A stretch of 64,000 nucleotides of DNA from an uncultured Candidatus Saccharibacteria bacterium. Its GTDB lineage: Bacteria > Patescibacteriota > Minisyncoccia > Phycocordibacterales > CAIZLB01. The stretch spans positions 9,429 through 73,428 of the forward strand of contig CAYXQC010000004.1 in assembly GCA_964467385.1 (NCBI GenBank). Reading direction: 5' to 3'. Below, piece after piece: positions 1 through 36,963 of the stretch (its first letter is position 1; the number at the start of each line of letters is the position of its first letter). Both the position numbers and the translations under genes were made by a program. The notes beneath the pieces were generated by a model. The model searched no databases. It was not told the origin of the DNA and saw only the letters and a list, made by a program, of their open reading frames with translations.

Positions 1-320
1 GGCGTAAGCATGGACCATGCGGCGAGGATCTGGATTCCTCAAAAGTTGTCCTCCCACTTAGACTCACTTCTTCTTCTTGGTGGCCATCATTTGTTCTCTA
101 GGAAATAGGGTCCTCGTCGCAAACTCAGACATCCACATCTTTCGAGCGGAAAGTCCGCTCATCGTTCATTCATTAGATCTTTTTGACCTTCGGGTCAATG
201 GTCGATATATCGACAAACATATCTGGCAAGTAGCCACATAGTATCGCAAATCCGCAGAGCAATTCGCACTGTGGATTTTTTCTTTTAAAAAATTCTTATC
301 GACCTGTATAATCAAATGAT

Positions 321-1529
321 ATGGCACTTATACAAGTTGGTGTTGTGCGCGGTGGACCTACTGCAGAATACGATGTGTCGCTTCGCACTGGGCAGCACAT
401 TTTGAACATGCTTGCTAAAGAGCCACTGGCTTCTAACTACAAAGGAAAAGATATTCTGATCGACCAAGAAGGTGTGTGGCATATGGATGGAATCCCCCAG
501 ACGCCAGATGCTATTTTGCGTGGTGTTGATGTTGTTTTTAATGCAACTAAAGGAAATTTTGAAAAAGGTAGTCCACTTCAGCGAATTCTTGAGTCATTTA
601 AAGTGCCATTTGTGGGAACTGAAACTCTAGGTTCAGCTTTGACTAAAAATAAAGTATTGTCGAAAGAACATTTTAAAAAGCAGGGTATTAAAACGCCATA
701 CTACAAGGAACTCAACCTGCCGCTTGGTGGAGATTTGAATCCTGTAGCCCTTGATCTGTTTAGAACTTTTCCAATGCCAGTTATTGTGAAGCCTGTAGGA
801 AAAGGTTCCTCTCTTGGTGTTTCTTTTGCCTCAAATTTTGAGGAATTGATTGAGGCTTTGAAGCATGCGCGCGGATTTTCCGAAGAAGTGTTGGTCGAGG
901 AGTATCTTACTGGTAAAGAAATTATTTCGGGCTTCATCGATGATTTCCGTGGCAAGGACTTGTATCATATGTTTCCTGTGGAAATTAAGCCGCATGAAAG
1001 GGAGGACTTTTTGAGTACCACTTTGCCGAATACTCTAAAAAGTGATGCCGTAAATGCAAACATGAGCACTAACCCTGAAGTGCAAGGTGACGCCCTGGTT
1101 TCTGGTGCTGTAAAAGTCGACGATTTATCTGAAAGTGAAAAAGCTTTGATCGCTCCGCTTAATGAGCTCGCAACTTCAAGTGTGACAAATGTTACAAATT
1201 CACCTAAGAAAAAACGACACTCAATATTTGACTGGGTCGGTAAACATGCAGGTTTGTATGATCACAGTTCTCCTGCGAATCTAACAAGTAAAGAAAAAAA
1301 GACTATTGAAGAGGCTGTCGCCAAAATTAAAGAAACTCTTGGTTTGCGACATTTTGCAACGGCTGATTTTATCGTGCATCCAAAGCGGGGAGTGTATTTG
1401 TTGGAGATAAACACTGACCCGAGCCTCCATGAACATGCACCTGTTTACAAGGCACTCGATGCTGCTGGAATAAAGCATCACGAGTTTTTTGACCACCTGA
1501 TAAGGCTTGCTCTTGGAGGCAAGAAATAG
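321..1529 (+). CDS. ddl: D-alanine--D-alanine ligase (ATP-grasp) with an internal low-complexity insertion
   Basis: N-terminus MALIQVGVVRGGPTAEYDVSLRTG resembles the Ddl N-domain (cf. IRVGVLFGGRSAEHEVS). ATP-grasp core follows (VIVKPVGKGSSLGVS, EVLVEEYLTGKEI, YLLEINTDPSL). Confidence 0.7.
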   Translation: MALIQVGVVRGGPTAEYDVSLRTGQHILNMLAKEPLASNYKGKDILIDQEGVWHMDGIPQTPDAILRGVDVVFNATKGNFEKGSPLQRILESFKVPFVGTETLGSALTKNKVLSKEHFKKQGIKTPYYKELNLPLGGDLNPVALDLFRTFPMPVIVKPVGKGSSLGVSFASNFEELIEALKHARGFSEEVLVEEYLTGKEIISGFIDDFRGKDLYHMFPVEIKPHEREDFLSTTLPNTLKSDAVNANMSTNPEVQGDALVSGAVKVDDLSESEKALIAPLNELATSSVTNVTNSPKKKRHSIFDWVGKHAGLYDHSSPANLTSKEKKTIEEAVAKIKETLGLRHFATADFIVHPKRGVYLLEINTDPSLHEHAPVYKALDAAGIKHHEFFDHLIRLALGGKK

Positions 1530-1608
1530 TAATATGTTTCGTAACGGTTTTTAGCCGTTTTTGTTTCTATAAAGAAGAGGCAAAAAACTAAAATCTCAAA
1601 ATAAATAA

Positions 1609-1681
1609 GGGCCCGTAGCTTAGTTGGTAGAGCGCCTCATTTGCACTGAGGAGGTCAGCGGTTCGAATCCGCTCGGGTCCA
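1609..1681 (+). tRNA. tRNA-Ala (anticodon UGC)
   Basis: Cloverleaf readable by eye. Acceptor GGGCCCG/CGGGTCC carries the G3:U70 alanine identity pair. Anticodon loop is TTTGCAC with a TGC anticodon. T-arm is GCGGTTCGAATCCGC. CCA is not encoded. Confidence 0.85.
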
Positions 1682-1691
1682 CAAAAACAAA

Positions 1692-1726
1692 GCACCCCAT
1701 CGTAAGATGGTGGTGTTTTGTTTTTG
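1692..1726 (+). terminator. rho-independent terminator after tRNA-Ala
   Basis: Hairpin cacc-ccatc gtaa gatgg-t-ggtg (one-base bulge) followed by TTTTGTTTTT. Confidence 0.5.
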
Positions 1727-1870
1727 CATACTAAGAAGCAAGCCGACTGCTCGGCTTGCGTGCGGATTCGAAAGGGTTCTCCTATATTTTCGAACGAATG
1801 CTTTTGCGACTTTAGCCAAGCATACGTGAGAAAATGGGAAACCCGTACTGCGCCTGTAAGGCGAGAAATT

Positions 1871-1884
1871 CCGCTCGGGTCCAC
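1871..1884 (+). repeat. direct repeat of the tRNA-Ala 3' end (att-like junction)
   Basis: Core ccgctcgggtccac matches the tRNA 3' end exactly. With one flanking base each side (ttccgctcgggtccac) it matches tRNA positions 1665-1680 at 15 of 16. It lies immediately upstream of promoter module A. Confidence 0.6.
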
Positions 1885-1890
1885 TCGATA

Positions 1891-1919
1891 TTGACTACTG
1901 TAAGAACGTATAGTACTAT
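1891..1919 (+). promoter_or_regulatory. promoter module A: TTGACT-N17-TACTAT within an inverted repeat
   Basis: TTGACT 1891-1896, 17-nt spacer, TACTAT 1914-1919, followed by the conserved CCGTGCG and leader ttgagtttggaagaaaggtca. An aagaac/gttctt inverted repeat brackets the -10. Confidence 0.5.
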
Positions 1920-2518
1920 CCGTGCGATGTGTTCTTTTAATTTGGTTGAGTTTGGAAGAAAGGTCATAACTTCCACACTGGTTTTCTGATTGGAAACTGG
2001 GGTTGTGATCCTTCCACTGAACTCAAATGCCAGAACCCTTTAAAAAATCAGGAGAAAAAATCCTTGATGACGCTGCAATTCATTTCACCGTCAATGACGT
2101 AAAATATCGTGTCAGAGCGAGTGCTTTTTTACAGATTTGATTCTTTTACCAGATGGGAAATACATGGTTGTAAATGAGTGGACTAGAGGCAACCCTCTCA
2201 AGCCAACCAAGTGGAAGCTTCTAGATGAAGTACCCAGTGACATGAGTCACCTCGAAGTCTATATTGCTGAGCAGTATGAATGGGAATAGGGTGATTACTA
2301 AGATTTGTCCCCGTTCTGTAAACTGAATGGAGAGCCTAGAGAAAGCAGAGTCTCAACAAGAGCCCCGAGCACAAGCGGAGGGTTCTTTTTAATTTAAAAT
2401 TCTCCTCAAAACCACCAACTCCTTTACAACTTGGTTCAGAAAAATGAAAGAGAAGTCCACTCGCATTGACTTTCTGTATAAATATGGCAATATATAGAAA
2501 GGGAACGAGGTGATTTAA

Positions 2519-2761
2519 ATGAATATCACCGTTACAGAACTGGAAGGCAAATTCGCTTTCTTGTTGTTGAAAAAAGTGATAAAAGAGAAAGATTCGTTGA
2601 GGAAACATAAGCCCAACGAAATCAAGCGCGAAGTAGTTAAGGTCGCGGAGGAACTCGGGGTTAAACCTGAAGACCTCTATTCTCTCTACCGCCGTATCGT
2701 CAACGAGCTAGTCGAGGAAGCTCGTCTTCCAGAAAAAATGGACTTCACCAAGCAAGGCTAG
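2519..2761 (+). CDS. hypothetical small protein (80 aa), island cassette
   Basis: ORF follows a gaagtccactcgcattgac promoter-like module and an RBS ggaacgaggtga. A hairpin terminator (aagccgca...tgcggctt) lies downstream. Confidence 0.45.
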   Translation: MNITVTELEGKFAFLLLKKVIKEKDSLRKHKPNEIKREVVKVAEELGVKPEDLYSLYRRIVNELVEEARLPEKMDFTKQG

Positions 2762-2949
2762 GCACCACGCCTACTAAAAGGGTAATTGCTCCTCCCACAC
2801 CAATGTGGCAAGGGCAGAACAAGAACCTCTCCTCCTTGGAGTCCAGAAGCCGCATCAGTAATGGTGCGGCTTCACTCTTTTAATATTTCACATAAATAAA
2901 CTAAATCTTTTGCAATTTGGTTTATAAAAATAATACTGAAGTCCACAAC

Positions 2950-3888
2950 CTCAATCATGCACCACATCTGCAACCTCGATATATACTTGAGGAATGAGAC
3001 ATTCAATACGAGATATATTAATTGAATTACGAAAGCAAAAAGGAAACTGTGCAAAAACAGCAAGAAGACTCGGAATACATAAAAGCACTGTGAGTAGATG
3101 GAAAAAGCGATCACAAAGAGGTGGTCGCTTTTTAGTTAATCAAATCAAGAGAGAATCAACGAGGCCTACCAATATTAAATATGTTCTCACAGAAAGAGAA
3201 GAGACAGATATCATCAAACTACGAGAAAGGAGGAAGTGTACAGCAGAGAAGATTAAATATATCCTTAAGCTTAAGGTGTCGGTAAGCACCATACAGAGAT
3301 TTTTAATACGAGTTGGTCTCATTGAACAGGAAGGATATCGTCGAAGACCTAAATTTCAAAATACCATACATATGCATGCAAAAAACGTTACTACAGTTGG
3401 ATACCTTCAAATGGATGTGAAAGTAGTTACTCCAGAGCTCTCAGGGCTACCTTGGACTTGTTTTGAGTATGCAGTCATTGATATTTACTCAAGATGGAAA
3501 GACGCTGTGATATTGAATCAGTTAGATCAAGATGGTTCCATCGGTGCACTCCTTGAGATATTACCGCGTCTTCCATTCAAACCTGTATTCATACAAACAG
3601 ACAACGGACTTGAGTTCCAACAGAAGTTTAAGAAGTTCCTAGATGGGTGGAATCTTAAACACCATCATATTCACAAATCTACTCCTAACGAGAATGCAGT
3701 GATTGAGAGATCCTTCCGAACCGATGAAGAAGAATTTTACTTTAGAATTGAACATCGACCTAAACACTACGACGAGCTTCGTGACCTTCTCAAAGACTTC
3801 CTGTACTACTACAACCATGAGAGACCACATTTGGGTATTAACATGAAAACACCAGCTGAAATGGTTGCAGATGTGGTGCATGATTGAG
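2950..3888 (+). mobile_element. IS481-family insertion sequence (939 bp) with perfect 26-bp terminal inverted repeats
   Basis: Left IR ctcaatcatgcaccacatctgcaacc (2950-2975) is the exact reverse complement of 3863-3888. A single transposase ORF sits inside. Confidence 0.75.
2994..3887 (+). CDS. IS481-family transposase (HTH + rve integrase core, DDE)
   Basis: N-terminal HTH (KTARRLGIHKSTVSRWKKR). rve core motifs QTDNGLEF, PNENAVIERSFRT and YNHERPHLGINMKTP. The C-terminus runs into the right IR. Confidence 0.85.
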   Translation: MRHSIRDILIELRKQKGNCAKTARRLGIHKSTVSRWKKRSQRGGRFLVNQIKRESTRPTNIKYVLTEREETDIIKLRERRKCTAEKIKYILKLKVSVSTIQRFLIRVGLIEQEGYRRRPKFQNTIHMHAKNVTTVGYLQMDVKVVTPELSGLPWTCFEYAVIDIYSRWKDAVILNQLDQDGSIGALLEILPRLPFKPVFIQTDNGLEFQQKFKKFLDGWNLKHHHIHKSTPNENAVIERSFRTDEEEFYFRIEHRPKHYDELRDLLKDFLYYYNHERPHLGINMKTPAEMVADVVHD

Positions 3889-3894
3889 ACGATA

Positions 3895-3923
3895 TTGACT
3901 ACTGTAAGAACGTATTGTACTAT
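3895..3923 (+). promoter_or_regulatory. promoter module C: TTGACT-N17-TACTAT within a perfect 8-bp inverted repeat
   Basis: Same 29-nt core as module A except one spacer base. aagaacgt / acgttctt flank the -10 (operator-like). It is upstream of ORF 4039-4551. Confidence 0.5.
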
Positions 3924-4038
3924 CCGTGCGACACGTTCTTTATATAGTTTGGGTTTAGAAATAGAGCCTTAAGAATCGCAGCCGACCTGCGATGCACTTA
4001 AAGTTCTTAACTCAACCCAAACAAAACAGCAACCTACC

Positions 4039-4551
4039 ATGACCGAACTACCTCCACCTCCCAGTGTTATCTACCTCTACCCATACACGATCCCTGTAGA
4101 TACTCTTCAGGCTTCGCGAGAGGGTTGGGTTCAAGTGCTTGCGGACCTTCAGGTTGAACGTGGTGACTCTTTCATTCTTCAGCCTGGCTACAGCATATCG
4201 CTAGCTATCAAGGACCTCGAAGTTGGTATCCTTATCACCGAGGATAACCCAGGCAAGGAATACCACGAGCTCAGCCTATTCCTCTTCGAGTTCGACCTGA
4301 GTTCGCTTGGCGACTTTTTTGTCCCGGCCACGGCGCTTTACACGTATGACGATGGGGCAAACTATGTCACCAGTGTCATTGAACACGTAATCACCGAGCA
4401 CTGGAAACCGCGCGTATTTACTCGTGCTGTTGCCGGCAATGAAACCGTAATCGAGGTTGTCCTTGAAGTTACACATGTTGGTGCAGGTGCGCCAATTGAA
4501 TACGTCGAACGTCTTGATCTGCTGAGCTTCGCAGCTTACGCAGGTGACTAG
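4039..4551 (+). CDS. hypothetical protein (170 aa), island cassette, GC-richer than surroundings
   Basis: ORF downstream of promoter module C and followed by a hairpin plus T-run terminator (~4590-4625). No recognisable family. Confidence 0.5.
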   Translation: MTELPPPPSVIYLYPYTIPVDTLQASREGWVQVLADLQVERGDSFILQPGYSISLAIKDLEVGILITEDNPGKEYHELSLFLFEFDLSSLGDFFVPATALYTYDDGANYVTSVIEHVITEHWKPRVFTRAVAGNETVIEVVLEVTHVGAGAPIEYVERLDLLSFAAYAGD

Positions 4552-4796
4552 TTTCGAGCCAAAAAAACCACCACCTCAAACACAGGGCCACTGTCGCAAG
4601 GTAGTGGTTTTCTGTTTTTTTAATTTCTTACCTTTAAATACGAAAATATACATAGTTCTAATACACACTGGTAGTAAGAACAAAGCTCAATACATCCCTA
4701 CTCAACTTCCTCTTTCTCAGCCTTGAGTATATAAGCCAGCACTTGCAACTCCTTAACCATTTGGTTCCATATTTGAGGCGGGAAGTCCACTCGCAT

Positions 4797-4825
4797 TGAC
4801 GAACAAAAGAATATATTGTACTATC
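4797..4825 (+). promoter_or_regulatory. promoter module D: TTGACG-N17-TACTAT plus conserved leader
   Basis: TTGACG 4797-4802, 17-nt spacer, TACTAT 4820-4825, then CCGTGCAG. The leader ttgagtttggaagaaaggtca..ctggggttgtga..cttccact is shared with module A. Confidence 0.5.
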
Positions 4826-4932
4826 CGTGCAGTATGTTCTTTTAAATTGTTTGAGTTTGGAAGAAAGGTCAGAACTTTTTACCAGTGTTGCTCTGCGAAA
4901 CTGGGGTTGTGACTCTTCCACTAAACTTAATC

Positions 4933-5241
4933 ATGAACAGATTATTGAAGAAGATATTGCGAATGGGCAACCTAGAGCAGTGCACTGAAACGGATATTGA
5001 AGAGGTGATTGCGAGAGGCGCAATAACAACAAAGCAGAAAGAGGTGCTATTTGGAGTGTATAGAACTCACCTTTCGTATGATTCGATTGCGATGAAGGTT
5101 GGCTGCACACCCCTGGGAGCACGTCGAATCGCAAGAAAAACATTTTTAAAGCTGGAGTATGCACTTGCAAGTCGTGCCACAGATCGTTTTATCGACCACC
5201 AAATCATCTGCGGTGTGGCAGCTGCAGCCGCTGGTTGTTGA
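4933..5241 (+). CDS. small HTH protein, sigma-70 region-4-like / LuxR-like helix-turn-helix
   Basis: LSYDSIAMKVGCTPLGARRIARKTFLKLE resembles a sigma region 4.2 HTH. The start was moved from the track's 4885 to the ATG at 4933, because 4885-4930 is the conserved promoter leader shared with module A. Confidence 0.4.
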   Translation: MNRLLKKILRMGNLEQCTETDIEEVIARGAITTKQKEVLFGVYRTHLSYDSIAMKVGCTPLGARRIARKTFLKLEYALASRATDRFIDHQIICGVAAAAAGC

Positions 5242-5485
5242 TAGCTACCCCTTTTTGTTTTTTTATCCAACTCTCCCTACAACAAGGAGTCACACGACTC
5301 ATGATGTGGGGCTTTTTGTTTTATTTAAAAATCTCTTTTAATCATTGCAACTCCCTCATAATCTGGTTCAGAAAAATAAAAGGGAAGTCCGTAGAGTATT
5401 AGCAAATAACACGTAATGTGGTATTTTGTTTTTAGGTTATCGATTCACGATACCGTTCAATACAAAAAAGAAAGGAACCTGCTCA

Positions 5486-5784
5486 TGAGCTTTTCATTGC
5501 TTAGTAAGTTTTACGCCCGTCCGGAGCTTTTCCGGAAAAACCAACCCGTCTATCTTCGTAAGTCTGATGAAGAGGCTGACGAAGATTCCCGTAGAAAACT
5601 TTCTCATCTGCGGGAGCAGATCGGTAGCGGACCGTTTCGTGTGCTTCGGATCACGGACACACCCTCCTCGAAAGCTGCACCTCAATGCGTCACGCTTGCT
5701 GACACAGGAAGTGATGCTCCTCTGCGAACCGAGGATGGACCACTGGAACTCAGCGGCTACTATCTGTCGTCGGATCCGCAGTAA
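5486..5784 (+). CDS. hypothetical protein (~99 aa), island cassette
   Basis: ATG at 5486 is preceded by the RBS aaaggaa, and a terminator-like hairpin lies at ~5805-5850. The longer track start at 5416 lacks an RBS. Confidence 0.35.
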
Positions 5785-6042
5785 GTCCAACTTGGTCGTC
5801 GCCCACTAACTCAGCACAGGAACCCCTGTCGTGAGATAGTGGGTTTTCTATTTTTATGTTACCAACAAATATCTCTGAACACTTTTCCAGATTTCGCATC
5901 TGTAAGGTTGAAATACGCAATTGGGTGATTCAAAAGTCTTGAACCATTACGGGGTATTGACTAGTGTAATATAACGTGATACTAATTGTAACGTTCTTTT
6001 ACATCTGAAAATCAATTCAAACGACAACTCAAAAAAACAGTC

Positions 6043-6489
6043 ATGGAACAAAAACTTGCTGAAGCAATCAGAAAAGCGTTGCTAGAAAACGGAATCGTCT
6101 TTTCGGAGGAGAACCCACTCGAGGTTCGTCTCCGTACTGCCAACGGAAGTATGGATACTCGTATTGCTTTCCCGGCAGTAACGCTAGGGAAAAATCTTGA
6201 AGATCTGATGGCTGTTGAAATTTCAACTCTCGGACTTGGAACGATCACTTGCAATACTTTAAAAGGTATGGGTATGGATACGGTAGGTGATGTACTCAAT
6301 CGAGTTGCAAAAGAAGGTTATCGCGAATTGATGCGTCAACGCCGCTTTGCAAAGAAAGGGTTCTATAATCTCCGTTCCGCGCTTTGGGATCTTGGCCTTA
6401 CCCTCGACAGTAATTGGAAAGTGCTGGATTACCTCCATCAAGATCGCGAATGGGAATCACGATTTCCATACTCTGTACGAGCGAGGTAA
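6043..6489 (+). CDS. stand-alone RNA polymerase alpha-subunit C-terminal-domain-like (HhH) protein
   Basis: VEISTLGLGTITCNTLKGMGMDTVGDVLNRVAKEGYRELMRQRRFAKKGFYNLRSALWDLGL matches the alpha-CTD pattern. Compare this genome's own RpoA C-terminus IDLSQRTANALVNANIRTVGGLIRKREKDILELDGLGSKGVEEIKVALETLGL. Confidence 0.5.
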   Translation: MEQKLAEAIRKALLENGIVFSEENPLEVRLRTANGSMDTRIAFPAVTLGKNLEDLMAVEISTLGLGTITCNTLKGMGMDTVGDVLNRVAKEGYRELMRQRRFAKKGFYNLRSALWDLGLTLDSNWKVLDYLHQDREWESRFPYSVRAR

Positions 6490-6570
6490 AAAGGCTAGCC
6501 AAAGTAGACAGGATTAATGCAGGATCGAAATCGTTGAACATCGTGATCGTTTCATAATGTTCGAACTCAA

Positions 6571-6606
6571 CCCACCACTCTGAAAAGTGTGGTGGGTTTT
6601 AATTTT
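6571..6606 (+). terminator. rho-independent terminator
   Basis: cccaccac tctgaaaagt gtggtggg followed by ttttaatttt. Confidence 0.6.
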
Positions 6607-7007
6607 AATACTTTATGTAAAAAAATAAAAATAAACCCCACACACCCGTAGCTTTTGTGTGGTCTATTCAGATAGTTCAAAAAATGGGAAATAAAAGGAA
6701 CAAAATTACTGTCGATTTTACACAAAAAACACAAAATTGACTCGTAATAAAACTGATTGATCAAACAAAATCAATCTAATGAACAAACGACTAGTCCAAT
6801 TGTGACTAGTCTGTTTTATTTTTAGATATGAATTTTTGATGAATAGGGTATATTCACAGACATATTTTTATGTGCTGTATTGCATTTTAGCTATAAAAAA
6901 GCTCACTTTTTTATTGACGCTCGTATGGGCGAGGAGTAGTCTATGGGTACCTTAACAACCAGACAGGTTCTTTAACGAACCTGCAATATTTACTGCCTAA
7001 ATTTTTT

Positions 7008-10000
7008 ATGCAAAAACCAAACATACAAACATCCCTTTTAGTAGCCTTGCTTTTAAGTTTAAGTATATTTTTACCAAGTGAACTTTCTGCTGCAACAACA
7101 GGTGCAACGAGCGGAACTAGTTTTTCTAACAATGCAGGAGGCACAGTTGCATGGAGCAATCTTTCAAATGCAACAAGTTCAGATAGCAATTATGTAACTG
7201 CTGGTTTAAATAGTGGTGGTAATCAAACTACACAAAAATTTAGAGCAACTGGATTCAATTTTAACATTCCTTCTAATGCTGTTGTAACGGGTATCGAAGT
7301 CACTGCTGAATATTCTGCTTCAAGCGCGAGTAAAATTGCAAGTTCAACTGTACAACTCGTAAAAGGCGGAACTACAATCACTGCCTATACTGGTAGCACA
7401 AGTGCTGTATGGACTACAACTAATACAACCTCTACATATGGAGGAACAAATCAACTTTGGGGTACCACATGGACAGCTACTGATATAAATGCTTCGAACT
7501 TCGGGGTAGAGTTCTCGACTCGATATAATACAGCATTTACTGGGGCGGTAACGGCTCAGCTTGATCAACTTTCTATAAAGGTCTACTATACGGCTCTTCC
7601 TCTTATCTCTGTTACTTCAAACATCTCAACCTCAACTCTGACGAATCAAGATATTACTATTACAGCCACTTCAACTGCTAATAGTACCCTAAACGCCACT
7701 TCACATATCTTCACAGAAAACGGCTCATTCGACTTCGTGGCGACTAATGTTGATGGTACAGCTACTACTACAGTAACTATTACAAACATCGACAAAGAGG
7801 CACCAGTTATCGCATCTTCTGTAGATATTGAAAATATTGAGGCAACTTCAGTATCAGGAGCTACTGTAACTTATACAACTCCAGCTATTACTGATAACAA
7901 CTCTGGAGCTACGGTTTCATGTCTCCCAGCTTCTGGATCTACTTTTGCACTTGGAACTACAGGTGTGATCTGTAATGGTTCAGATGTTGCAGGCAACTCT
8001 GCTACTTCAACTACATTCAATGTAACTGTGGTTGATACAACTTCACCTGTCATTGTATTGATTGGTGCTGATCCTCTTTCTGTAGAAGCTGGTACAGTCT
8101 TCGTTGACCCAGGGGCCACAGCAATAGATGCAAGTGGTGACTTTGCTGCCACATCAACAAATAACGTCGATACAGGAACTCTAGGGATATATACAGTGAC
8201 ATACACTGCCACTGATGCATCAGGAAACAGTGCTTCATCTACTACTCGAACAGTAAATGTGGTAGACACAACAGCACCTGCTGCACCAACTGCTGTATCA
8301 CCAATTGCAAATGCAATTCTTACTTCATCAGCACTCACTGTGCTTGATTGGAGTGATGTGGCTGATTTCTCATCACCAGTAACATATGCATACCAGCTCT
8401 CAAATTCAAATGCTACTAACCTAGACGGAACATTCGTTACTCCGATCGCTTCAGGAAGCACACTTACTACATCTGAAGCCTCAACGACTCTTGCGACAGA
8501 GGGTGACTATTACTACATTGCTCAGGCAACAGATGCACAGCTCAATGCTGGCCTTTGGATGTCTCCGGTTAAATTTACAATCGACAATACCGCACCTGCA
8601 ATTACAGTCACTGGCTCAAGCAGTATGACAGTAGAAGGTGGCTCAGTGTACGCAGACGATGGAGCTACAGCTCTTGATACGGTTGATGGACCAGTTTCAG
8701 TTTCATCATCAGGCAGTGTTGATACATCAATCACAGGCACATACACAATTACCTATACTGCAACAGATACAGCTGGAAATACTGCTACATCTACTCGATC
8801 TATTGAAGTAGTGGATACAACATCTCCTGTCATCACTCTTCTTGGCTCTGATCCCGTAACCATCGAAGCGGGTTCAACATATACAGATGCTGGAGCTACA
8901 GTGTCTGACAATATCTCTACTCCAATCACTGCAACAGCTTCAGGAACAGTTTCAACATTCGTAGTTGGAACATATGTGATCGAATACAATGCAGTTGATG
9001 GATCTGGAAATGTGGCCGCAACGGTTACTCGAACAGTAAACGTAGTAGACACAACGGCACCAGTTATAAACATCACTGGTCAGAATCCAAATATTGTAAC
9101 TATTAACAATGTATATGTAGACTCTGGTGCAACAGCTAGCGATCTTGTTGACGGAATCATCACTGTAACTTCAACAAGCACAGTTGATACAGCAACTCTT
9201 GGTACATATGCGGTGACATATTTTGCAACTGACTTGAGTGGTAATACAACTTCAGCTTCTCGATCAGTTATCGTTATTCCTCCAGACACAACAGCACCAG
9301 TTATCACAATCCTCGGCACAAATCCTCTTACAATCGAAGGTGGATCACTCTATATCGATGCCGGAGCAACAGCTCTTGATAACGTGAATGGAAATCTCAC
9401 AAGTTCAATCGTGACAGTCAATGGTGTAATAGCTACTTCAACAGGTTCATACACTGTGACTTACGATGTGTCTGACGGGGCAGGAAATCCTGCGACACAA
9501 GGCGTTCGAAATGTAACTGTAGTAGATACAACTGCACCAGTTCTCACAGTAAATGGTACAAATCCACTCACACTTCACATCGGTGATACATACACAGAGC
9601 TCGGTGCAACAGCTACAGATGCAGTTGATCAAGCGGTAGTGGTAGTAGTTGGTGGTGACATTGTTACAACAACAGCAACTTCAACATTCGTGGTGAGCTA
9701 TACAGCATCAGATGCATCAGGAAATCCTGCAATCCCAGTATCACGAACAGTGTATGTGGTTGATATAGCAGTACCAATCATCACAATCGTAGGTTCAAGC
9801 ACCGTTGATGTTGAATACGGCTCAGTGTATACAGATGCCGGAGCAACAGCGCTTGATGACGCTGATGGTGATATCTCTGCAAACATTGTAACTTCAGGAA
9901 GTGTAAACACATCAGCTCTCGGTGCATACACACTTTCATATGATGTATCAGACTCATCAGGAAATGCTGCAATTACCACAAACCGAACAGTAAATGTGGT

Positions 10001-10847
10001 GGATACGACAGCTCCAGTGGTGACAGTAACAGGTAGCTCAACAGTTGTACTCACGGTTGGTGACACGTACACAGAAGATGGAGCAACAGCTACAGATGCA
10101 GTTGATGGTTCACTTATAGTAACGACAACAGGAACAGTAGATACAAATACAGTTGGTACATACACACTTGTTTACTCTGCTACAGATCTTAGTGGCAACA
10201 CCGGCACATCAAGCCGAGACGTGATTGTAAATGCTGCTCCAGATACAACGGCGCCAATCATTACAATCCTTGGTACAAATCCTGTAACAATCACAGTCGG
10301 TGGTGTATTCACTGATGAAGGGGCAACTTCAACTGATAATGTTGATGTAAATCTTCCAATCACAGCTTCAAGCACGGTAAACACAAGCGTAGTCGGTACA
10401 TACACAGTGACATACAACACAACTGACAATTCAGGTAATGCTGCTATTCCAATGGTTCGAACAGTAAACGTGGTAGCGGCTACTGAAACAACTACACAGA
10501 CTCAGCAAGGTCAGACAGGTGGAGGAGGCGCACCAGTGGCACTCTTCACTAATTCAGGAGCAAATGGAGGTTCAAATAATGGTGCAGGTAACAATGGGGC
10601 AGCTGGAGTAGTACTCGGTGAAGCAACATTCCAATTCACAAAAAATCTTGGTCTTGGTTCAAGAGGAAATGATGTGATTGAACTCCAGAAGCGACTTAAG
10701 GCAGAAGGATTCTTTAAGTTCAATGTAACAACAGGATTCTTCGGTCCAGTGACACTTCAGGCGGTCAAGGCATACCAGATCGCTCACGGTATTAAGCCAG
10801 TATCAGGATTCGTAGGTGTACTTACTCGAGCGGAACTCAATAAGTAA
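7008..10847 (+). CDS. large secreted surface protein: signal peptide, ~10 tandem Ig-like (DUF5011/HYR-type) repeats, C-terminal peptidoglycan-binding domain
   Basis: Signal peptide MQKPNIQTSLLVALLLSLSIFLPSELSA. An ~80-aa unit ending ...R(T/S)VNVVDTTAP(V)I(T) recurs about 10 times, each with YTD.GATA.D..DG and G.Y...Y.A.D.SGN motifs. C-terminus carries a PG_binding_1-like segment (LGLGSRGNDVIELQKRLKAEGFF...GPVTLQAVKAYQ). Confidence 0.8.
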   Translation: MQKPNIQTSLLVALLLSLSIFLPSELSAATTGATSGTSFSNNAGGTVAWSNLSNATSSDSNYVTAGLNSGGNQTTQKFRATGFNFNIPSNAVVTGIEVTAEYSASSASKIASSTVQLVKGGTTITAYTGSTSAVWTTTNTTSTYGGTNQLWGTTWTATDINASNFGVEFSTRYNTAFTGAVTAQLDQLSIKVYYTALPLISVTSNISTSTLTNQDITITATSTANSTLNATSHIFTENGSFDFVATNVDGTATTTVTITNIDKEAPVIASSVDIENIEATSVSGATVTYTTPAITDNNSGATVSCLPASGSTFALGTTGVICNGSDVAGNSATSTTFNVTVVDTTSPVIVLIGADPLSVEAGTVFVDPGATAIDASGDFAATSTNNVDTGTLGIYTVTYTATDASGNSASSTTRTVNVVDTTAPAAPTAVSPIANAILTSSALTVLDWSDVADFSSPVTYAYQLSNSNATNLDGTFVTPIASGSTLTTSEASTTLATEGDYYYIAQATDAQLNAGLWMSPVKFTIDNTAPAITVTGSSSMTVEGGSVYADDGATALDTVDGPVSVSSSGSVDTSITGTYTITYTATDTAGNTATSTRSIEVVDTTSPVITLLGSDPVTIEAGSTYTDAGATVSDNISTPITATASGTVSTFVVGTYVIEYNAVDGSGNVAATVTRTVNVVDTTAPVINITGQNPNIVTINNVYVDSGATASDLVDGIITVTSTSTVDTATLGTYAVTYFATDLSGNTTSASRSVIVIPPDTTAPVITILGTNPLTIEGGSLYIDAGATALDNVNGNLTSSIVTVNGVIATSTGSYTVTYDVSDGAGNPATQGVRNVTVVDTTAPVLTVNGTNPLTLHIGDTYTELGATATDAVDQAVVVVVGGDIVTTTATSTFVVSYTASDASGNPAIPVSRTVYVVDIAVPIITIVGSSTVDVEYGSVYTDAGATALDDADGDISANIVTSGSVNTSALGAYTLSYDVSDSSGNAAITTNRTVNVVDTTAPVVTVTGSSTVVLTVGDTYTEDGATATDAVDGSLIVTTTGTVDTNTVGTYTLVYSATDLSGNTGTSSRDVIVNAAPDTTAPIITILGTNPVTITVGGVFTDEGATSTDNVDVNLPITASSTVNTSVVGTYTVTYNTTDNSGNAAIPMVRTVNVVAATETTTQTQQGQTGGGGAPVALFTNSGANGGSNNGAGNNGAAGVVLGEATFQFTKNLGLGSRGNDVIELQKRLKAEGFFKFNVTTGFFGPVTLQAVKAYQIAHGIKPVSGFVGVLTRAELNK
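8016..10500 (+). repeat. tandem ~240-bp coding repeats (~10 copies) inside the surface-protein gene
   Basis: Periodic recurrence of gtggtagacacaacagcacc-like units. The many antisense ORFs here (7871-8461, 8753-9076, 9698-10165 and others) are repeat artefacts. Confidence 0.7.
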
Positions 10848-12596: not shown

Positions 12597-13013
12597 ATGC
12601 TTAAAAATGCAGAAAGTGAAAGAGGAAAAACTGAGGAAAAGCCCAAAAAGCGGATCCTGATCGTGGAGGACAATGAACGGATTGGTGAAACGATGGAGTG
12701 GTTTTGCGGAATCCAGCTGGGCTTCGTAGTGGCGTGGGTAAAGACTCGGAGAAATGCCTCTCGTCACATCAACATGAAAGGTCCTTGGGATTGCGTCATT
12801 CTCGACGGATGTCTTGAGGGTTTGGAACCTGATACGTTGTATTTGATCCCTGTGATCAAGGCAACATCCCCAAACTGCGTGATCATTGCCAACTCGAACG
12901 ACCTGCATGTTTCTGACCGGCTGATGGCTGAAGGTTGTCACCTCCGTTTTCCGAGCAAGGATGATTTCAATCAATTCTTCCGCAAGTTCTGCGAGGAGAA
13001 AGGTTGGACCTGA
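12597..13013 (+). CDS. stand-alone receiver (REC/CheY-like) domain protein, possibly degenerate
   Basis: KRILIVEDNERIGE ... CVILDGCLEGLEP ... fold pattern. Strong RBS aaggaagg. Promoter TTGACA-N17-TAATAT lies upstream (~12498-12527). Confidence 0.5.
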   Translation: MLKNAESERGKTEEKPKKRILIVEDNERIGETMEWFCGIQLGFVVAWVKTRRNASRHINMKGPWDCVILDGCLEGLEPDTLYLIPVIKATSPNCVIIANSNDLHVSDRLMAEGCHLRFPSKDDFNQFFRKFCEEKGWT

Positions 13014-13443: not shown

Positions 13444-13819
13444 TTGCAATTTCGTTTATTATTCGAAATTATTTCATAATAGTGCACAAACGACCAAAAT
13501 TTCATCAAAAATCTCTAAAAAATAAATCAAAAAATAATAAAATAGTCTAAAGAAAAATCTATAAATGAGCCGACACAAATTGTCGTAAAACTTATCCTAA
13601 AATACGACACAAAATATCAGGTTTTTAGAGTTGCATTTGCATCAATTTTAAAATCGTTTTGCAGTAGCAATTTTCATCAATTTTTTGTAATTATCCACAA
13701 GTCACACATTCGAAAAAGGTGTAAAATTTTACCCACGAGGCAATTTGGCCAATTTTAGTTGAGCGAGATAGTGTGTTGCTTCATTATAAAAACTTATCAA
13801 ACCTTAGACCTTTCGTCGT

Positions 13820-17975: not shown

Positions 17976-18947
17976 TTATTTTTTACCCACAAGATACCTC
18001 TGAATATTATTCTTATGCGCCTGATATGTTTTTGCGCAATAAATATTTCTATTACTGTGAATATAAAATAGACACTCTGTTTTTTGTGGATTAAATGCTG
18101 CGTCAATTGCTGCAAGACTTGGATTTGCGATAGCTGTAGGTGGAAGCCCTTTGTTTTGATAAGTGTTGTAGTCAGATTCGATGTATTTATCTTTTGAAAG
18201 CACATCCGGCCACCAGTCTGTAGAGCTTGCTTTAGCGTATTGAAGCGTAGCGTCCATATCAAGAGTCATGCCACGAAAAAGTCGATTCCATATCACCCCA
18301 GAGATTATCTTCATGTCGCTCGGACCAGCTGCTTCGCGCTGAATAATAGAAGCGATTCGCACTGCGGTATCGAGGTTAATCTTTCCACCAGTGGTACCTG
18401 TCACACCAGTCGCTAAAGCACCTTGTGAATTTTTTGTGGCTGCATTACTTTTATTGCTTTTTCCACCAGCTTGTTTTGCTAATACTTTATTTGAAACTTC
18501 AGTGTTGAATTTTCGAAGCATTTGATTCGCCACATCTGCGCCAGTTGCATCGAGATCAAACCAGTACGAACCTGGCATATAATATCCGTCCAAAACACCT
18601 CGCTCATCTTGTGGAGCGGTGTTCAAAAAAGCTTCTGTATTGCTTGCATTCCACGACAAAACCTTGGTTAGTCTCTCGGCGATTTGTTCACGGCGTAGAC
18701 CTGGCTGAATGGTTACAAAACGTTTGGTTGGATTGGCTAGGTTTGAATAGAATTCGAGAGGATCAAGACCATTTTTGTAAAGAAATAGGCTGGTGCCCGT
18801 CATAGCTACTGACGCTAATAAAAACATTAAAACAAGGGATATTTTTAGTCGGAGCGAGGGCTTGCCGGAAGGTCGTCCAGACAGCCGTCCGTTCGAGTGA
18901 TGTGAAGATCCTTTATATACATGCGAATGTACCCGAGGGGCTCTCAT
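17976..18947 (-). CDS. mltG: MltG/YceG-like endolytic transglycosylase, paralog 1
   Basis: YNTYQNKGLPPTAIANPSLAAIDAAFNP...LFYIH family motifs, N-terminal membrane anchor. Confidence 0.7.
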   Translation of the reverse strand: MRAPRVHSHVYKGSSHHSNGRLSGRPSGKPSLRLKISLVLMFLLASVAMTGTSLFLYKNGLDPLEFYSNLANPTKRFVTIQPGLRREQIAERLTKVLSWNASNTEAFLNTAPQDERGVLDGYYMPGSYWFDLDATGADVANQMLRKFNTEVSNKVLAKQAGGKSNKSNAATKNSQGALATGVTGTTGGKINLDTAVRIASIIQREAAGPSDMKIISGVIWNRLFRGMTLDMDATLQYAKASSTDWWPDVLSKDKYIESDYNTYQNKGLPPTAIANPSLAAIDAAFNPQKTECLFYIHSNRNIYCAKTYQAHKNNIQRYLVGKK

Positions 18948-31615: not shown

Positions 31616-32671
31616 ATGGCAACTGCACCAACACTATCATTCAAGCCGAAGATCGTTACTAAGAGACTCCTTTCTGCGCTCCCTGAAAGAGCTCGACTGG
31701 TTGTTACAAAGCGATATGGTCTCGACAAGGACAATGAAAAGATGACACTTGAAGCTATCGGCGAAACATATAACATCACCCGAGAACGAGTTCGACAGAT
31801 TGAGCACGCTGCTCTACAAAACATTCGAAAGTCAGCTTTCTATAAGCAAGAAAAACCTATTTTCGAGGAACTCTATACATATATTCATGATCTTGGTGGC
31901 ATGATCGGTGAAGAAGAGCTTCTTAAGCATTTTGCAAAAGATCAGTCTACACAGAATCATATTCATTTTATGCTCGTGGTAGGTGAAAACTTCAAGAAAG
32001 AAAAAGAAGACCCTGAATTCAAACACCGATGGCATGTTGACGCACAACTTTCAAAGAAGATTCATGAAGCGCTCCGAAAGCTCTACAAAACTCTTGGTGA
32101 TGATGATTTGATTCCAGAGTCAGAGATGATTAAAACATTCCTTGAGCATTTGAAAGATGTAAATGAAAAGTACAAGAACGACGAAGTTGCAAAGCGATGG
32201 TTAAATATTTCTAAAAACATCGCCAAAAACCCTCTAGGTGAATGGGGTAAGTCAGATTCTCAGAATGTTAAAACAAAAGGTATTCGAGATTATGCCTTTC
32301 TTGCAATGCGAAAGCATGGTTCACCGATCCATTTCCGAGATATTGCAAAGCTTATCGAAAAACTCTTTAACAAGAAGGCTCATGTTGCTACTACTCATAA
32401 CGAACTTATCAAGGATAAGCGATTCGTACTCGTAGGACGAGGGCTCTATGCTCTTACAGAATGGGGTTATGCAAGTGGTGTCGTGAAAGACGTTATCAAG
32501 AAAATGATCGAAAAGTACGGTCCTCTTACCAAAGAAGAAATAATTCAAAAGGTTATGAAGGAACGATATGTAAAAGAAAACACAATCCTCGTTAACCTCC
32601 AAAACTCAAAATTCTTCAAGAAAGATAAGGATGGAAAATACTCTCTCGGTGGCGATCTTGCAGAAAAATAA
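31616..32671 (+). CDS. sigma-70 region-4 domain protein with a ~270-aa C-terminal domain of unknown function
   Basis: N-terminus LVVTKRYGLDKDNEKMTLEAIGETYNITRERVRQIEHAALQNIRK is a canonical region 4.2 HTH. No region 2 is present. Confidence 0.6.
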   Translation: MATAPTLSFKPKIVTKRLLSALPERARLVVTKRYGLDKDNEKMTLEAIGETYNITRERVRQIEHAALQNIRKSAFYKQEKPIFEELYTYIHDLGGMIGEEELLKHFAKDQSTQNHIHFMLVVGENFKKEKEDPEFKHRWHVDAQLSKKIHEALRKLYKTLGDDDLIPESEMIKTFLEHLKDVNEKYKNDEVAKRWLNISKNIAKNPLGEWGKSDSQNVKTKGIRDYAFLAMRKHGSPIHFRDIAKLIEKLFNKKAHVATTHNELIKDKRFVLVGRGLYALTEWGYASGVVKDVIKKMIEKYGPLTKEEIIQKVMKERYVKENTILVNLQNSKFFKKDKDGKYSLGGDLAEK

Positions 32672-34679: not shown

Positions 34680-35696
34680 ATGCCGCTAGAAAACAATACT
34701 GAGTCAGAAAATATAATTGAAAATTCAATTCTAAAACATGCATTAAGTATTGGTGTGACTTTGGTGCTATGTACACTCATTATACTTGGTGTATTTTATT
34801 TCAAACTTGTAAAAGCACCATCTGGCAGAACACAAGAGAGTTATCCAATCCGAGTAGTCATCGAACAAGGTCAAAATGCTGCATCTATAGCTGCTGAATT
34901 GAAAGAACAGCAAGTAATTTCGTCAGCAGGTTTCTTGCGACGACTCATATTGTTTCGAGGAAAGTCGGTACGCATATCTTCTGGAACATATATATTTGAA
35001 AATCCATCTACTGTTTTTACGGTTATGGACAGACTTATTAAAAGTGATTTTGGTTATACACCAGTAAAAGTCACAGTACCAGAAGGGATGAATGTGAAAT
35101 CTTTGACTCGACTTATAAGTGAAAAGTTTCCGCACCTTTCTGCGGATCAGTTTGCACTTGAATCTGCCAAATACGAAGGTTATTTATTCCCAGAAACATA
35201 TTTCTTCGAGCCAAGTGCAACATCTAGTGCCATTATTGCTCGCATGACTTCAATGTTTGACCAGATGATTACTAAACACCTCCCAGAATTTACAACTCTA
35301 AGTGAATCACAAAGACGTGACACTATCATTCTCGCATCAATCCTTGAAGAAGAGGTGCAAACGTATGAAGATAAGCAAATGGTCGCTGATTTACTCATGC
35401 ATCGCATGAAAATCGGCATGGCACTTCAGGTTGATGCTACGCTGGCATATCGTTTTGGGAAAACTTCAGCTGAGCTTCGTGCTGATGATTTGAAATCAGA
35501 GGATCCGTACAATACATATACGCATCGTGGTCTGCCACCAACTCCAATTTCTAACCCTGGCCTTGAGTCAATTCGAGCAGCTTTGAATCCGCTTCCAAAT
35601 CCATATCTCTTCTATCTTTCTGATAAAAATGGTATAACACATTTCTCAAAAACTCATGAAGAACACGTTAAACTCAAAGCTACATACCTCAGATAA
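34680..35696 (+). CDS. mltG: MltG/YceG-like endolytic transglycosylase, paralog 2
   Basis: YNTYTHRGLPPTPISNPGLESIRAALNP...LFYLS. N-terminal TM. Confidence 0.75.
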   Translation: MPLENNTESENIIENSILKHALSIGVTLVLCTLIILGVFYFKLVKAPSGRTQESYPIRVVIEQGQNAASIAAELKEQQVISSAGFLRRLILFRGKSVRISSGTYIFENPSTVFTVMDRLIKSDFGYTPVKVTVPEGMNVKSLTRLISEKFPHLSADQFALESAKYEGYLFPETYFFEPSATSSAIIARMTSMFDQMITKHLPEFTTLSESQRRDTIILASILEEEVQTYEDKQMVADLLMHRMKIGMALQVDATLAYRFGKTSAELRADDLKSEDPYNTYTHRGLPPTPISNPGLESIRAALNPLPNPYLFYLSDKNGITHFSKTHEEHVKLKATYLR

Positions 35697-36963
35697 GGGC
35701 GCACATGCTGTTTCAGATGTTCTGGCAGCAAATCAAACTCCGGGTCGGAAAGTCTTTGTGGGTATGTCTGGTGGTGTTGATTCTTCTGTATCAGCAGCAC
35801 TCCTCAAAGAAGCTGGATATGATGTCACTGGTGTGTTTATAAAAGTATGGCAACCAGATTCTACTGATTGTGGCTGGAAAGATGAGAGACGTGATGCTAT
35901 GCGAGTTGCTGCTGTACTTGATATCCCATTTTTGACTCTCGATTTTAGTGAAGTATATAAGCGTGAAGTGGTTGATTATATGATTAATGAATATGCTTCG
36001 GGTCGCACACCGAATCCTGACGTAATGTGTAATCGTCATGTAAAATTCGGTTCATTTTTAAAATATGCACGCGAACATGGTGCAGATTTCGTGGCTACGG
36101 GGCATTATGCGCAAAATGTAGAGATAGAAAATACTGATAGAGGCATTCGCGGTGGTAATATCGGTGGGACTGAAACAGTTGCTAAACCAAAAAAATACGT
36201 AGCTGAAAGTGTTGATAATCAAAAAGATCAAAGCTATTTTCTCTGGACTTTACATGAAAAGGATCTGGAGTACATATTGTTTCCAATTGGTCATCTAGAA
36301 AAAACAGAAGTGCGAAAACTTGCTGAAAAATTTGGATTACCTGTATTTGATAAAAAAGATAGTCAAGGTGTGTGCTTTATTGGTCACCTCGATATGAAAG
36401 AGTTCTTAAAAGAGCATATCCCAGGTGCTGCGAGGGTAGGTGAAGTTTTGGATACAACTGGAACAGTGATTGGTTCTCATGAAGGTGCGATACTGTATAC
36501 AATAGGTGAGCGACATGGGTTTAATCATATCGTGAAAAATACTGATCCTTTGCCACTTTTTGTAATTGCAAAAGATGTCAAAAAAAATACTATAACTGTT
36601 GCGCCGAAATCTGCACATGTAGCAATGGATAACGGCGGACAAAACGGTACAACCTTATCGACTCAAATAAGACTTCGAGATGTAAATCTACACAGTGATT
36701 TTGATGAACGACTTCGTATCGGAAAAGGTGCGAAGGTTGAACTCGAATGCAGGATTCGGTACCGACAAGAAAAACAAAAATGCACTTTGATGGTGCAAAC
36801 TGATAAAAATGGCGATCCAGAGTATATCGTTAAATTTGAAGAATTTCAGCACGGGCTGGCTGAGGGACAGTCTCTTGTTCTGTACTCTGATACTGTTAGC
36901 ACAAAAAATTCACAAAAAAACACTACACTTTGTATCGGTGGTGGTATAATCGAACTTATATGA
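35656..36963 (+). CDS. mnmA: tRNA-specific 2-thiouridylase MnmA (PP-loop ATPase) with insertion (start uncertain)
   Basis: KVFVGMSGGVDSSVSAALL PP-loop. Catalytic Cys region DVMCNRHVKF. Confidence 0.85.
   Translation: MKNTLNSKLHTSDKGAHAVSDVLAANQTPGRKVFVGMSGGVDSSVSAALLKEAGYDVTGVFIKVWQPDSTDCGWKDERRDAMRVAAVLDIPFLTLDFSEVYKREVVDYMINEYASGRTPNPDVMCNRHVKFGSFLKYAREHGADFVATGHYAQNVEIENTDRGIRGGNIGGTETVAKPKKYVAESVDNQKDQSYFLWTLHEKDLEYILFPIGHLEKTEVRKLAEKFGLPVFDKKDSQGVCFIGHLDMKEFLKEHIPGAARVGEVLDTTGTVIGSHEGAILYTIGERHGFNHIVKNTDPLPLFVIAKDVKKNTITVAPKSAHVAMDNGGQNGTTLSTQIRLRDVNLHSDFDERLRIGKGAKVELECRIRYRQEKQKCTLMVQTDKNGDPEYIVKFEEFQHGLAEGQSLVLYSDTVSTKNSQKNTTLCIGGGIIELI

Follow-up and report, generated by a model that had tools for sequence, protein, structure and literature searches.

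A variable array of small single-gene cassettes behind tRNA-Ala in Paceibacterota

In chromosomal super-integrons, near-identical attC repeats of ~70 nt (the Vibrio cholerae repeats, VCR) sit at the 3' ends of cassettes that use one primary site and are driven from a common promoter, Pc. Phage morons, located inside prophages, are autonomous units of promoter, open reading frame (ORF) and terminator that leave neighbouring transcription undisturbed. The streamlined genome of Prochlorococcus carries hypervariable, tRNA-adjacent islands built from tycheposons—elements flanked by partial tRNA copies, kilobases long, each with its own tyrosine or large serine recombinase and replication or packaging genes—whose successive integrations push older elements inward and leave partial tRNAs scattered through the island (bioRxiv 10.1101/2020.12.28.424599). 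The cis-mobilizable elements (CIMEs) of streptococci, several kilobases in size and decayed from integrative and conjugative or integrative and mobilizable elements (ICEs or IMEs), keep attL and attR without integration or transfer genes and lie in tandem at a tRNA 3' end (PMC5704250); the rAID-1 arrays of Bacteroidales bring together small orphan genes, repetitive intergenic sequences ‘reminiscent of integrons’, a conserved XerD-family recombinase at the head, skewed GC and homologues of immunity genes (bioRxiv 10.1101/471110). Here we describe an array behind tRNA-Ala(TGC) in a 64-kb stretch of chromosomal DNA from an uncultured bacterium of the Paceibacterota (contig CAYXQC010000004.1, assembly GCA_964467385.1; hereafter ‘the window’, at its full length), where segment 1885-6610 is made up of six co-oriented units of 0.5–1.2 kb. 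In the reading we favour, which we hold to be about evenly balanced between right and wrong, these would be integrase-less mini-cassettes accreted at the 3' end of the tRNA by a recombinase encoded elsewhere and then reshuffled by homologous recombination, their mobility being deduced from sequence comparison.

Working along the window from the left, segment 1683-~6610 is enclosed by the frame UvrC-Ddl-tRNA-Ala ... nrdA (class I ribonucleotide reductase); a frame that we find again in ten related loci of Paceibacterota. The Ddl-tRNA-Ala(TGC) flank is kept in the window and L009-L014, and the nrdA boundary in the window, L005, L007, L010, L011 and L014, the flanks being seen wherever the retrieved contigs extend far enough. 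Between them lies an interval of 2–11 kb whose content is unlike in every locus compared: its cargo in relatives consists of differing small ORFs, large surface proteins and, in L012, a Type III restriction-modification system, and the sole ORF common to five loci is one of 170 aa. Amongst GTDB representative genomes, the Ddl relatives belong to metagenome-assembled genomes of Candidatus Paceibacterota/Patescibacteria at 56–67% amino-acid identity, and the array architecture recurs in genomes this distant. In order, a full unit consists of a 2–5-nt linker after GTCCAC, a promoter, a GTTCTTT(T)A motif, a long leader hairpin (‘H2’), one ORF, an intrinsic terminator and a 73-nt repeat (‘D2’). Together with a terminator-like hairpin folded around the promoter (‘H1’), D2 and H2 are additions to a first-pass annotation of the window, from which this work started.

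Set beside the systems above, the locus is like a tycheposon island in being additive and tRNA-anchored, with tandem insertions separated by partial copies of the tRNA; it contains an insert flanked by tRNA ends and has variable content at a conserved site, whereas no recombinase encoded by the elements was found. Unlike tycheposons, its units measure 0.2–1.2 kb, hold one ORF or none and are built on a shared promoter/leader/terminator/D2 chassis, and most of its junction repeats share just 6–9 nt with the tRNA. With integrons it has in common co-oriented, small, single-ORF cassettes (many without known relatives), a ~70-nt 3' repeat, a fixed insertion point and content that differs between close relatives; it departs from them in having a tRNA 3' end, not attI, as primary site, an unstructured repeat, cassettes with promoters and terminators of their own, and no IntI beside the array. 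The units recall the accretion of CIMEs, in that they lie in tandem at a tRNA 3' end between candidate attL and attR sites and without integration or transfer genes, but they are uniform and do not look like decayed parts of anything larger. As in rAID-1, small orphan genes are separated by repeated intergenic elements, although here no XerD-family gene stands at the array head, GC is not skewed and the cargo has no PADLOC or Pfam matches. Finally, the units are autonomous in the manner of morons but form an array behind a tRNA, joined by a common junction repeat, and no phage genes were found. In the searchable literature we found no description of such arrays in Patescibacteria.

The D2 repeat lies at the 3' end of the cassette and ends in GAAGTCCAC, of which GTCCAC reproduces the last six bases of the tRNA (...GGTTCGAATCCGCTCGGGTCCAC, a putative attB-like anchor for the array). 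Its alignment over 73 nt is near gap-free, with single-base gaps in 2 of 14 copies; it lies between two terminators and is without secondary structure on either strand (folding against shuffled sequence, z -0.8 to +1.2), a combination that fits a site acting at the DNA level. The window holds four copies for its six cassettes, all on the + strand, and across ~197 kb of DNA from the window and related loci a D2 profile matches exclusively in the tRNA-Ala-proximal interval and on the tRNA strand. A profile of the promoter module behaves in the same way, save for one weak match on the opposite strand (L014 2005-1966, E 4e-4). We also considered whether D2 might be a degenerate whole tRNA and rejected this, there being no profile match and an alignment z of only 0.4–2.6; the distance from GGTTC to GTCCAC is 27–28 nt in D2 and 23 nt in the tRNA. 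A metagenome scan with D2 returned only two short contigs (L019 and L020), and IMG/VR no match; three junction matches in IMG/VR proved to be chance occurrences in unrelated DNA. One D2 of L013 has at its end not the CTAGGG variant of L013 itself but CTCGGGTCCAC, the tRNA variant of the window and L014, a hint that it was imported from a different genome. Also in L013, a near-identical block of ~110 nt (terminator plus D2 ending CTCGGGTCCAC-CA) is present at 12680-12785 and 13660-13769, on both sides of a 232-aa cassette; an arrangement that looks like long direct repeats around one unit.

The first-pass annotation had listed four GTCCAC-containing junctions, each leading into a promoter or small ORF. 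Those at 2452 and 4782 share an exact 19-mer, GAAGTCCACTCGCATTGAC (0.03 chance matches expected in the window); an insertion sequence (IS) stands between a third GAAGTCCAC, at 2938-2946, and the ATTGAC (3894) that belongs to it; and the last, at ~5384, reads GAAGTCCGT and is followed by no ATTGAC promoter. Across the window, bare GTCCAC shows no enrichment (21 occurrences vs 17 expected); significance attaches to the longer junctions only. The core of that annotation, a variable locus at a tRNA attachment site, composed of small cassettes equipped for their own expression and without a visible integrase, stands: segment content is not conserved and differs in all ten loci, and the D2 and promoter profiles are limited to the locus but for the single weak match; that is, the reverse of the two outcomes—identical content in relatives, or equally frequent repeats elsewhere—that had been named as fatal to it.

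All four classes of att-type junction expected of site-specific recombination are present, in register to the nucleotide. The tRNA's GTCCAC runs into an A-rich terminator in the window, L007, L008, L009 and L012, and into a TCGAT-ATTGAC promoter in L010, L011 and L014 and, in variant form, in L005 and L013; the GTCCAC of D2 meets a terminator, with or without an X-unit (see below), in L005, L013 and L020, and a promoter in the window (twice), L008, L011, L013 (twice) and L019. From their composition, we would equate these junctions with attB, attL, attR and attP-like sites. An additional cassette in L005 is bounded precisely by the tRNA 3' end on one side and the terminator+X block on the other.

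Immediately behind the tRNA of the window, its last 15 nt (TCCGCTCGGGTCCAC, 1668-1682) are repeated exactly, confirming a copy already remarked upon in the first-pass annotation; this copy closes an ORF-less mini-insert of 202 bp, which we term the X-unit, and not an ORF-bearing cassette. From left to right, the X-unit starts with the tRNA terminator, continues through a small hairpin and a partial T-arm (GCGGATTCGAA ... ATTCCGC) whose loop is interrupted by a structured body of ~95 nt, and closes with the tRNA-end copy (Table 1). It is missing from L014 and L010, where the tRNA runs directly into the promoter found at 1885 in the window; bases 1605-1682 of the window are 100% identical to L014. 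The insert lies between 15-nt repeats with the tRNA left intact, and its tRNA-end copy behaves like an att duplication. In L012 (11534-11900) there are two tandem X-units, the first closed by 20 nt that copy the tRNA end perfectly, and L008 and L012 are 96% identical up to the middle of this copy and divergent thereafter. The X body folds with z = -3.2 both in the window (1759-1884) and in L005 (800-930), the inner helix being replaced by a different, still paired, sequence. It has no Rfam match (at E <= 1, positions 1-9000 of the window gave the tRNA plus sub-threshold noise only) and may represent either a small RNA or an integrative element of miniature size. Breaks in Logan contigs were considered as a sign of strain heterogeneity and set aside; they fall in the tRNA, at D2, the IS and terminators, that is, at repeats, and are thus uninformative on this point.

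Table 1. Features of the tRNA-Ala-proximal array in the window (promoters, terminators and ORFs are predictions; z, folding score)
Feature	Coordinates	Strand	Details
tRNA-Ala(TGC)	1609-1682	+	ARAGORN; Rfam tRNA, 72 bits
X-unit	1683-1884	+	202-bp ORF-less insert with 15-nt direct repeat of the tRNA end; tRNA terminator ~1683-1730; small hairpin 1740-1757; partial T-arm 1761-1771; structured body ~1772-1866; tRNA-end copy 1870-1884
Cassette 1	1885-2460	+	-35 1891-1896; -10 1914-1919; H1 1902-1936 (z = -3.0); H2 1940-2028 (z = -3.4); ORF pieces 2027-2140 and 2137-2289; terminator-like hairpin ~2363-2392; D2 2389-2460
Cassette 2	2461-2946	+	TTGACT 2466-2471; AT-rich -10 region ~2489-2496; no H1 or H2; Shine-Dalgarno; 80-aa ORF 2519-2761; terminator 2846-2873; D2 2876-2946
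IS481-family insertion sequence	2950-3888	+	perfect 26-nt inverted repeats 2950-2975 / 3863-3888; transposase 2994-3887
Cassette 3	3889-4790	+	promoter 3895-3923; H1 3906-3940 (z = -4.3); H2 3947-4022 (z = -5.8); 170-aa ORF 4039-4551; terminator ~4565-4611; D2 (b type) 4722-4790
Cassette 4	4791-5392	+	promoter 4796-4824; H1 4805-4843 (z = -8.2); H2 4848-4933 (z = -5.0); 102-aa ORF 4933-5241; terminator ~5275-5323; D2 5321-5392, ending GTCCGT
Cassette 5	5393-5855	+	no standard 5' module; 99-aa ORF 5485-5784 with Shine-Dalgarno; terminator 5802-5855
Cassette 6	5947-6610	+	TTGACT 5947-5952; TACTAA 5970-5975; GTTCTTT at 5993; weak H1, no H2; 148-aa ORF 6043-6489 (alpha-CTD-like stretch); terminator 6571-6610; right end of array

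The predicted promoter has the consensus ATTGAC-17 nt-TACTAT, a match to the sigma-70 type; it precedes cassettes 1, 3 and 4, and a variant precedes cassette 6. That every ORF has a promoter of its own, as first proposed, is clear for these four cassettes; cassettes 2 and 5 (from 2461 and 5393) are without the standard 5' module, H1 and H2 included, and cassette 6 has a weak H1 only, so that the rule is only partly true. As a tidy scheme of one promoter and one terminator per ORF, it is not supported. Cassette 5 in particular has no convincing -35 and no leader structure (z = 0), though its terminator belongs to the shared family. A frameshift in a T6 run (~2124-2129) or close to it breaks the ORF of cassette 1 (2027-2289) into pieces of 37 and 50 aa, which points either to a pseudogene or to a sequencing error.

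H1 is a hairpin of 17–18 bp with a 5-nt loop and a T-run behind it; it takes in the promoter spacer along with the -10 element and the initial bases of the predicted transcript. Its folding z falls as low as -8.8, and a terminator scan flagged it independently. Across an alignment of 11 sequences, 90% of cells are paired, against 34–57% with the partners slid out of register; only three pairs show true double substitutions, and the many U-G pairs point to an RNA hairpin on the sense strand. Besides the copies in cassettes 1, 3 and 4, a terminator overlapping a promoter in this way is seen in L008, L010, L014 and L009 (2192-2226). In L010, L011, L014, L005 and L013, no terminator other than H1 is seen between the tRNA and the first cassette; H1 could serve as a one-way transcriptional insulator. 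H2 is a leader hairpin of 75–85 nt, usual rather than universal, that ends 0–25 nt before an ATG lacking a Shine-Dalgarno sequence. In the window and its relatives, all 11 leaders examined fold with significant stability (z -2.0 to -6.7); apical sequences vary, and the basal stem swaps TTGAGTT/AACTCAA for TTGGGTT/AACCCAA. Adjoining as it does a start codon without Shine-Dalgarno, H2 probably controls translation or RNA processing.

In the mechanism we propose, a circular cassette with a D2-GTCCAC / linker-promoter junction (attP-like) would recombine with the tRNA-...GTCCAC / downstream junction (attB), or with a partial tRNA copy, by means of a recombinase supplied from elsewhere in the genome or by a helper element. 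X-units would enter likewise, duplicating 15–20 nt of the tRNA 3' end, and the excision of one would join tRNA-GTCCAC to TCGATATTGAC. With insertion at the tRNA end, the newest units would lie nearest the tRNA, older ones having been pushed distally; homologous recombination between shared modules, deletions and ISs would then remodel the array. H1 would stop transcripts arriving from the tRNA or the preceding cassette, and transcripts from the embedded promoter, beginning in the 3' arm of H1, would escape termination; with H1 upstream and a terminator downstream, each unit would be insulated at both ends. More tentatively, and as a possibility to which we give less weight, the whole could be an undescribed gene-capture system of the candidate phyla radiation (CPR): an ‘expression-ready integron’ of insulated cassettes with a 73-nt linear D2, served at tRNA-Ala by an unlinked recombinase and supplying these reduced genomes with a quickly renewed stock of lineage-specific small proteins.

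Saying this, a number of observations count against a site-specific origin. The crossover can be placed only to somewhere between GTCCAC and ATTGAC, and the likeness of D2 to the tRNA is limited to GGTTC and GTCCAC, overall similarity not being significant. Among predicted ORFs of the window with 110 aa or more, Pfam scans found no tyrosine, serine or HUH recombinase; the remark in the first-pass annotation that no integrase is visible thus holds for integrase domains in these larger ORFs of the 64 kb, the only transposase amongst them being of the IS481 DDE type, inside one junction. Nor did a recombinase turn up in five relatives over the 4–10 kb that precede Ddl, among those island ORFs that were scanned, or in Pfam tables for Logan contigs; on the upstream side, where it had been suggested that one be sought, the neighbours are UvrC, UvrA and Adk. 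Blastn of the 5.3-kb island against phage and plasmid collections returned no match. Neither a circular form nor an excision scar nor heterogeneity in the population was observed, in data where circular intermediates and empty-site variants could not be sought. On its right side, the shared 170-aa cassette ends raggedly, at limits that differ from genome to genome; unrelated ORFs have 5' and 3' modules in common, homology stopping at the ATG and resuming ~12 nt past the stop; and the promoter/H1 segment of the window (3894-3958) matches L009 (702-766) at 65 of 65 positions, with the 170-aa ORF behind it at a synonymous divergence (dS) of 0.63. This last contrast points to strong constraint on the module or its recent gene conversion, and the three findings together to homologous recombination/gene conversion, strong constraint, or both.

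Such points are the natural ground of a rival account, in which the locus would be a flexible island of the usual kind, kept up through natural transformation together with homologous recombination and needing no dedicated recombinase. The Ddl-tRNA-Ala and nrdA flanks, together with promoter, terminator and D2, would provide portable homology, the modules would be expression signals spread by duplication and gene conversion, and GTCCAC would travel with the promoter since the founding promoter sat directly behind the tRNA. The failure to find a recombinase, the ragged cassette boundaries and the perfect promoter match beside a diverged ORF (which fits gene conversion) all suit it, as does the identical ~110-nt terminator+D2 block occurring twice in L013, and for modules shared by unrelated ORFs, with homology broken at ATG and stop, it is the simpler explanation. 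We nonetheless think it rather unlikely, as it leaves unexplained why foreign inserts are flanked by 15–20-nt copies of the tRNA 3' end, why the GTCCAC of D2 meets the tRNA's own terminator at the same nucleotide as does the tRNA elsewhere, and why D2 is conserved at fixed length between terminators even where no promoter follows. The partial tRNA copies and tandem units, with their resemblance to tycheposon islands and CIME accretion, could also be what is left of one or more larger tRNA-integrating elements (prophage, ICE/IME or tycheposon-like), decayed to moron-like units and att remnants; the ‘host-takeover’ flavour of the cargo (the alpha-CTD-like protein described below, and a weak AcrVA2-like match in L005) and the Type III system at the L012 locus would be in keeping. 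In related loci no phage gene, conjugation gene or integrase fragment was found, nor were meaningful PHROG or PADLOC matches or relatives of ICEs or IMEs; the units are uniform, complete and under constraint rather than decayed, and the same architecture is met in genomes whose Ddl is only 56–67% identical, all of which makes this an improbable history.

It is less probable still that D2 serves the promoter of the next cassette from upstream, as an A-rich UP element or an activator site of which GTCCAC is a part, and matches the tRNA end by coincidence. The A-rich 3' half of D2 does immediately precede the -35 element of the promoter that follows, and the island encodes an alpha-CTD-like protein; but ~7 of some 18 D2 copies precede a terminator or unrelated sequence and not a promoter, promoters directly behind the tRNA or the X-end do without D2, and in L013 D2 has been duplicated along with the terminator upstream of it. 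To a classical integron, or a CALIN (attC cluster lacking integrase), where the first-pass annotation had spoken of an integron-like locus, we give next to no credence, for all that co-oriented single-ORF cassettes with repeated junction elements would be its hallmark. No IntI-type tyrosine recombinase was found beside the array, either in the larger ORFs of the window or in the flanks (up to 10 kb) of relatives; D2 as an attC-like hairpin was rejected, for it folds no better than shuffled sequence on either strand; the leader hairpin H2, tried in the same role, was likewise rejected, having GTTRRRY 5' and RYYYAAC 3', the reverse of the attC box order; and the cassettes bring predicted promoters and terminators in place of a common Pc. 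Elements of the IS200/IS605 type, including palindrome-associated transposable elements (PATEs), would have subterminal hairpins at both ends and a Y1 HUH transposase. Here H1 lies ~14 nt from the left junction and the right end, D2, is unstructured, and no Y1_Tnp domain was found in Pfam scans of the window.

Turning to the cargo, the 170-aa ORF has a family of seven members with dN/dS ~0.2, and is thus a real gene. It occurs in five different neighbourhoods behind the same tRNA, directly after it in L007 and L009 and with other units intervening in the window, L005 and L008. The family forms one 50% cluster among 1.84 billion representatives, and a scan of GTDB genomes with it found nothing; the 148-aa and 102-aa ORFs have zero relatives among 5.8 billion proteins. 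Against Pfam, PHROGs and PADLOC the cargo ORFs gave nothing significant, the 80-aa ORF having only a weak PHROG match of unknown function, and AlphaFold models of the 170-aa and 148-aa proteins (pLDDT 43–44) are too poor for a structure search. A helix-turn-helix (HTH) protein, announced in the first-pass annotation, could not be recovered as a family match outside the IS transposase, and the deviant GC claimed for the island was not borne out: it ranges over 0.39–0.45, against 0.35–0.44 in the remaining window, and with these ranges overlapping, a foreign base composition is ruled out. The IS fared better; it is present as one copy in the window, and its transposase has rve_3 and HTH domains and ~30% identity to annotated IS481 transposases. 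A likeness of the 148-aa protein to the C-terminal domain of the RNA polymerase alpha subunit (alpha-CTD) has weak but consistent support. Its residues 52-123 are 28% identical to that domain of the window's own RpoA (47244-48215; pairwise E = 2e-5), and 10 of its 11 weak PDB matches are alpha-CTD chains; judging from these alignments, the protein may be an RNA-polymerase decoy or modulator.

Beyond the cassettes, window positions 6627-6663 match the end of L009, and a secreted repeat protein of 1279 aa (7008-10847) follows directly after the array. Its promoter has GTTCTTT inside a small hairpin (6963-6984), and relatives of 663–1020 aa are found in L005, L013 and L014, the one in L005 with fn3 and peptidoglycan-binding domains. 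The restriction-modification system of L012 (11943-16704; Mod 686 aa, Res 899 aa) occupies a tRNA-Ala...nrdA interval without D2 or promoter cassettes, making the tRNA-Ala site a general hotspot for accessory genes. Further into the window, we observed an ATP-cone domain fused to an Mrr-type restriction endonuclease domain (36930-37844), an unusual pairing that adjoins a PD-(D/E)XK nuclease (37894-38721); a 351-aa protein with N-terminal sigma-70 region 4 and a HARE-HTH domain (31616-32671); and two YceG/MltG paralogues (17976-18947, - strand, and 34680-35696).

Patescibacteria/CPR bacteria have very small genomes, and how they gain genes is little understood; a collection of ready-to-express genes at the side of a tRNA would offer a compact route to strain-level novelty, with possible uses in host interaction, defence or counter-defence, and would be a natural example of standardised, insulated expression cassettes. 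Should a trans-acting recombinase recognise D2, this would amount to site-specific recombination of a new type, one that works on a short linear site. On a more conservative reading too, the conserved promoter embedded in a terminator and the hairpins of the leaders offer candidate regulatory elements in a phylum with almost no experimental genetics.

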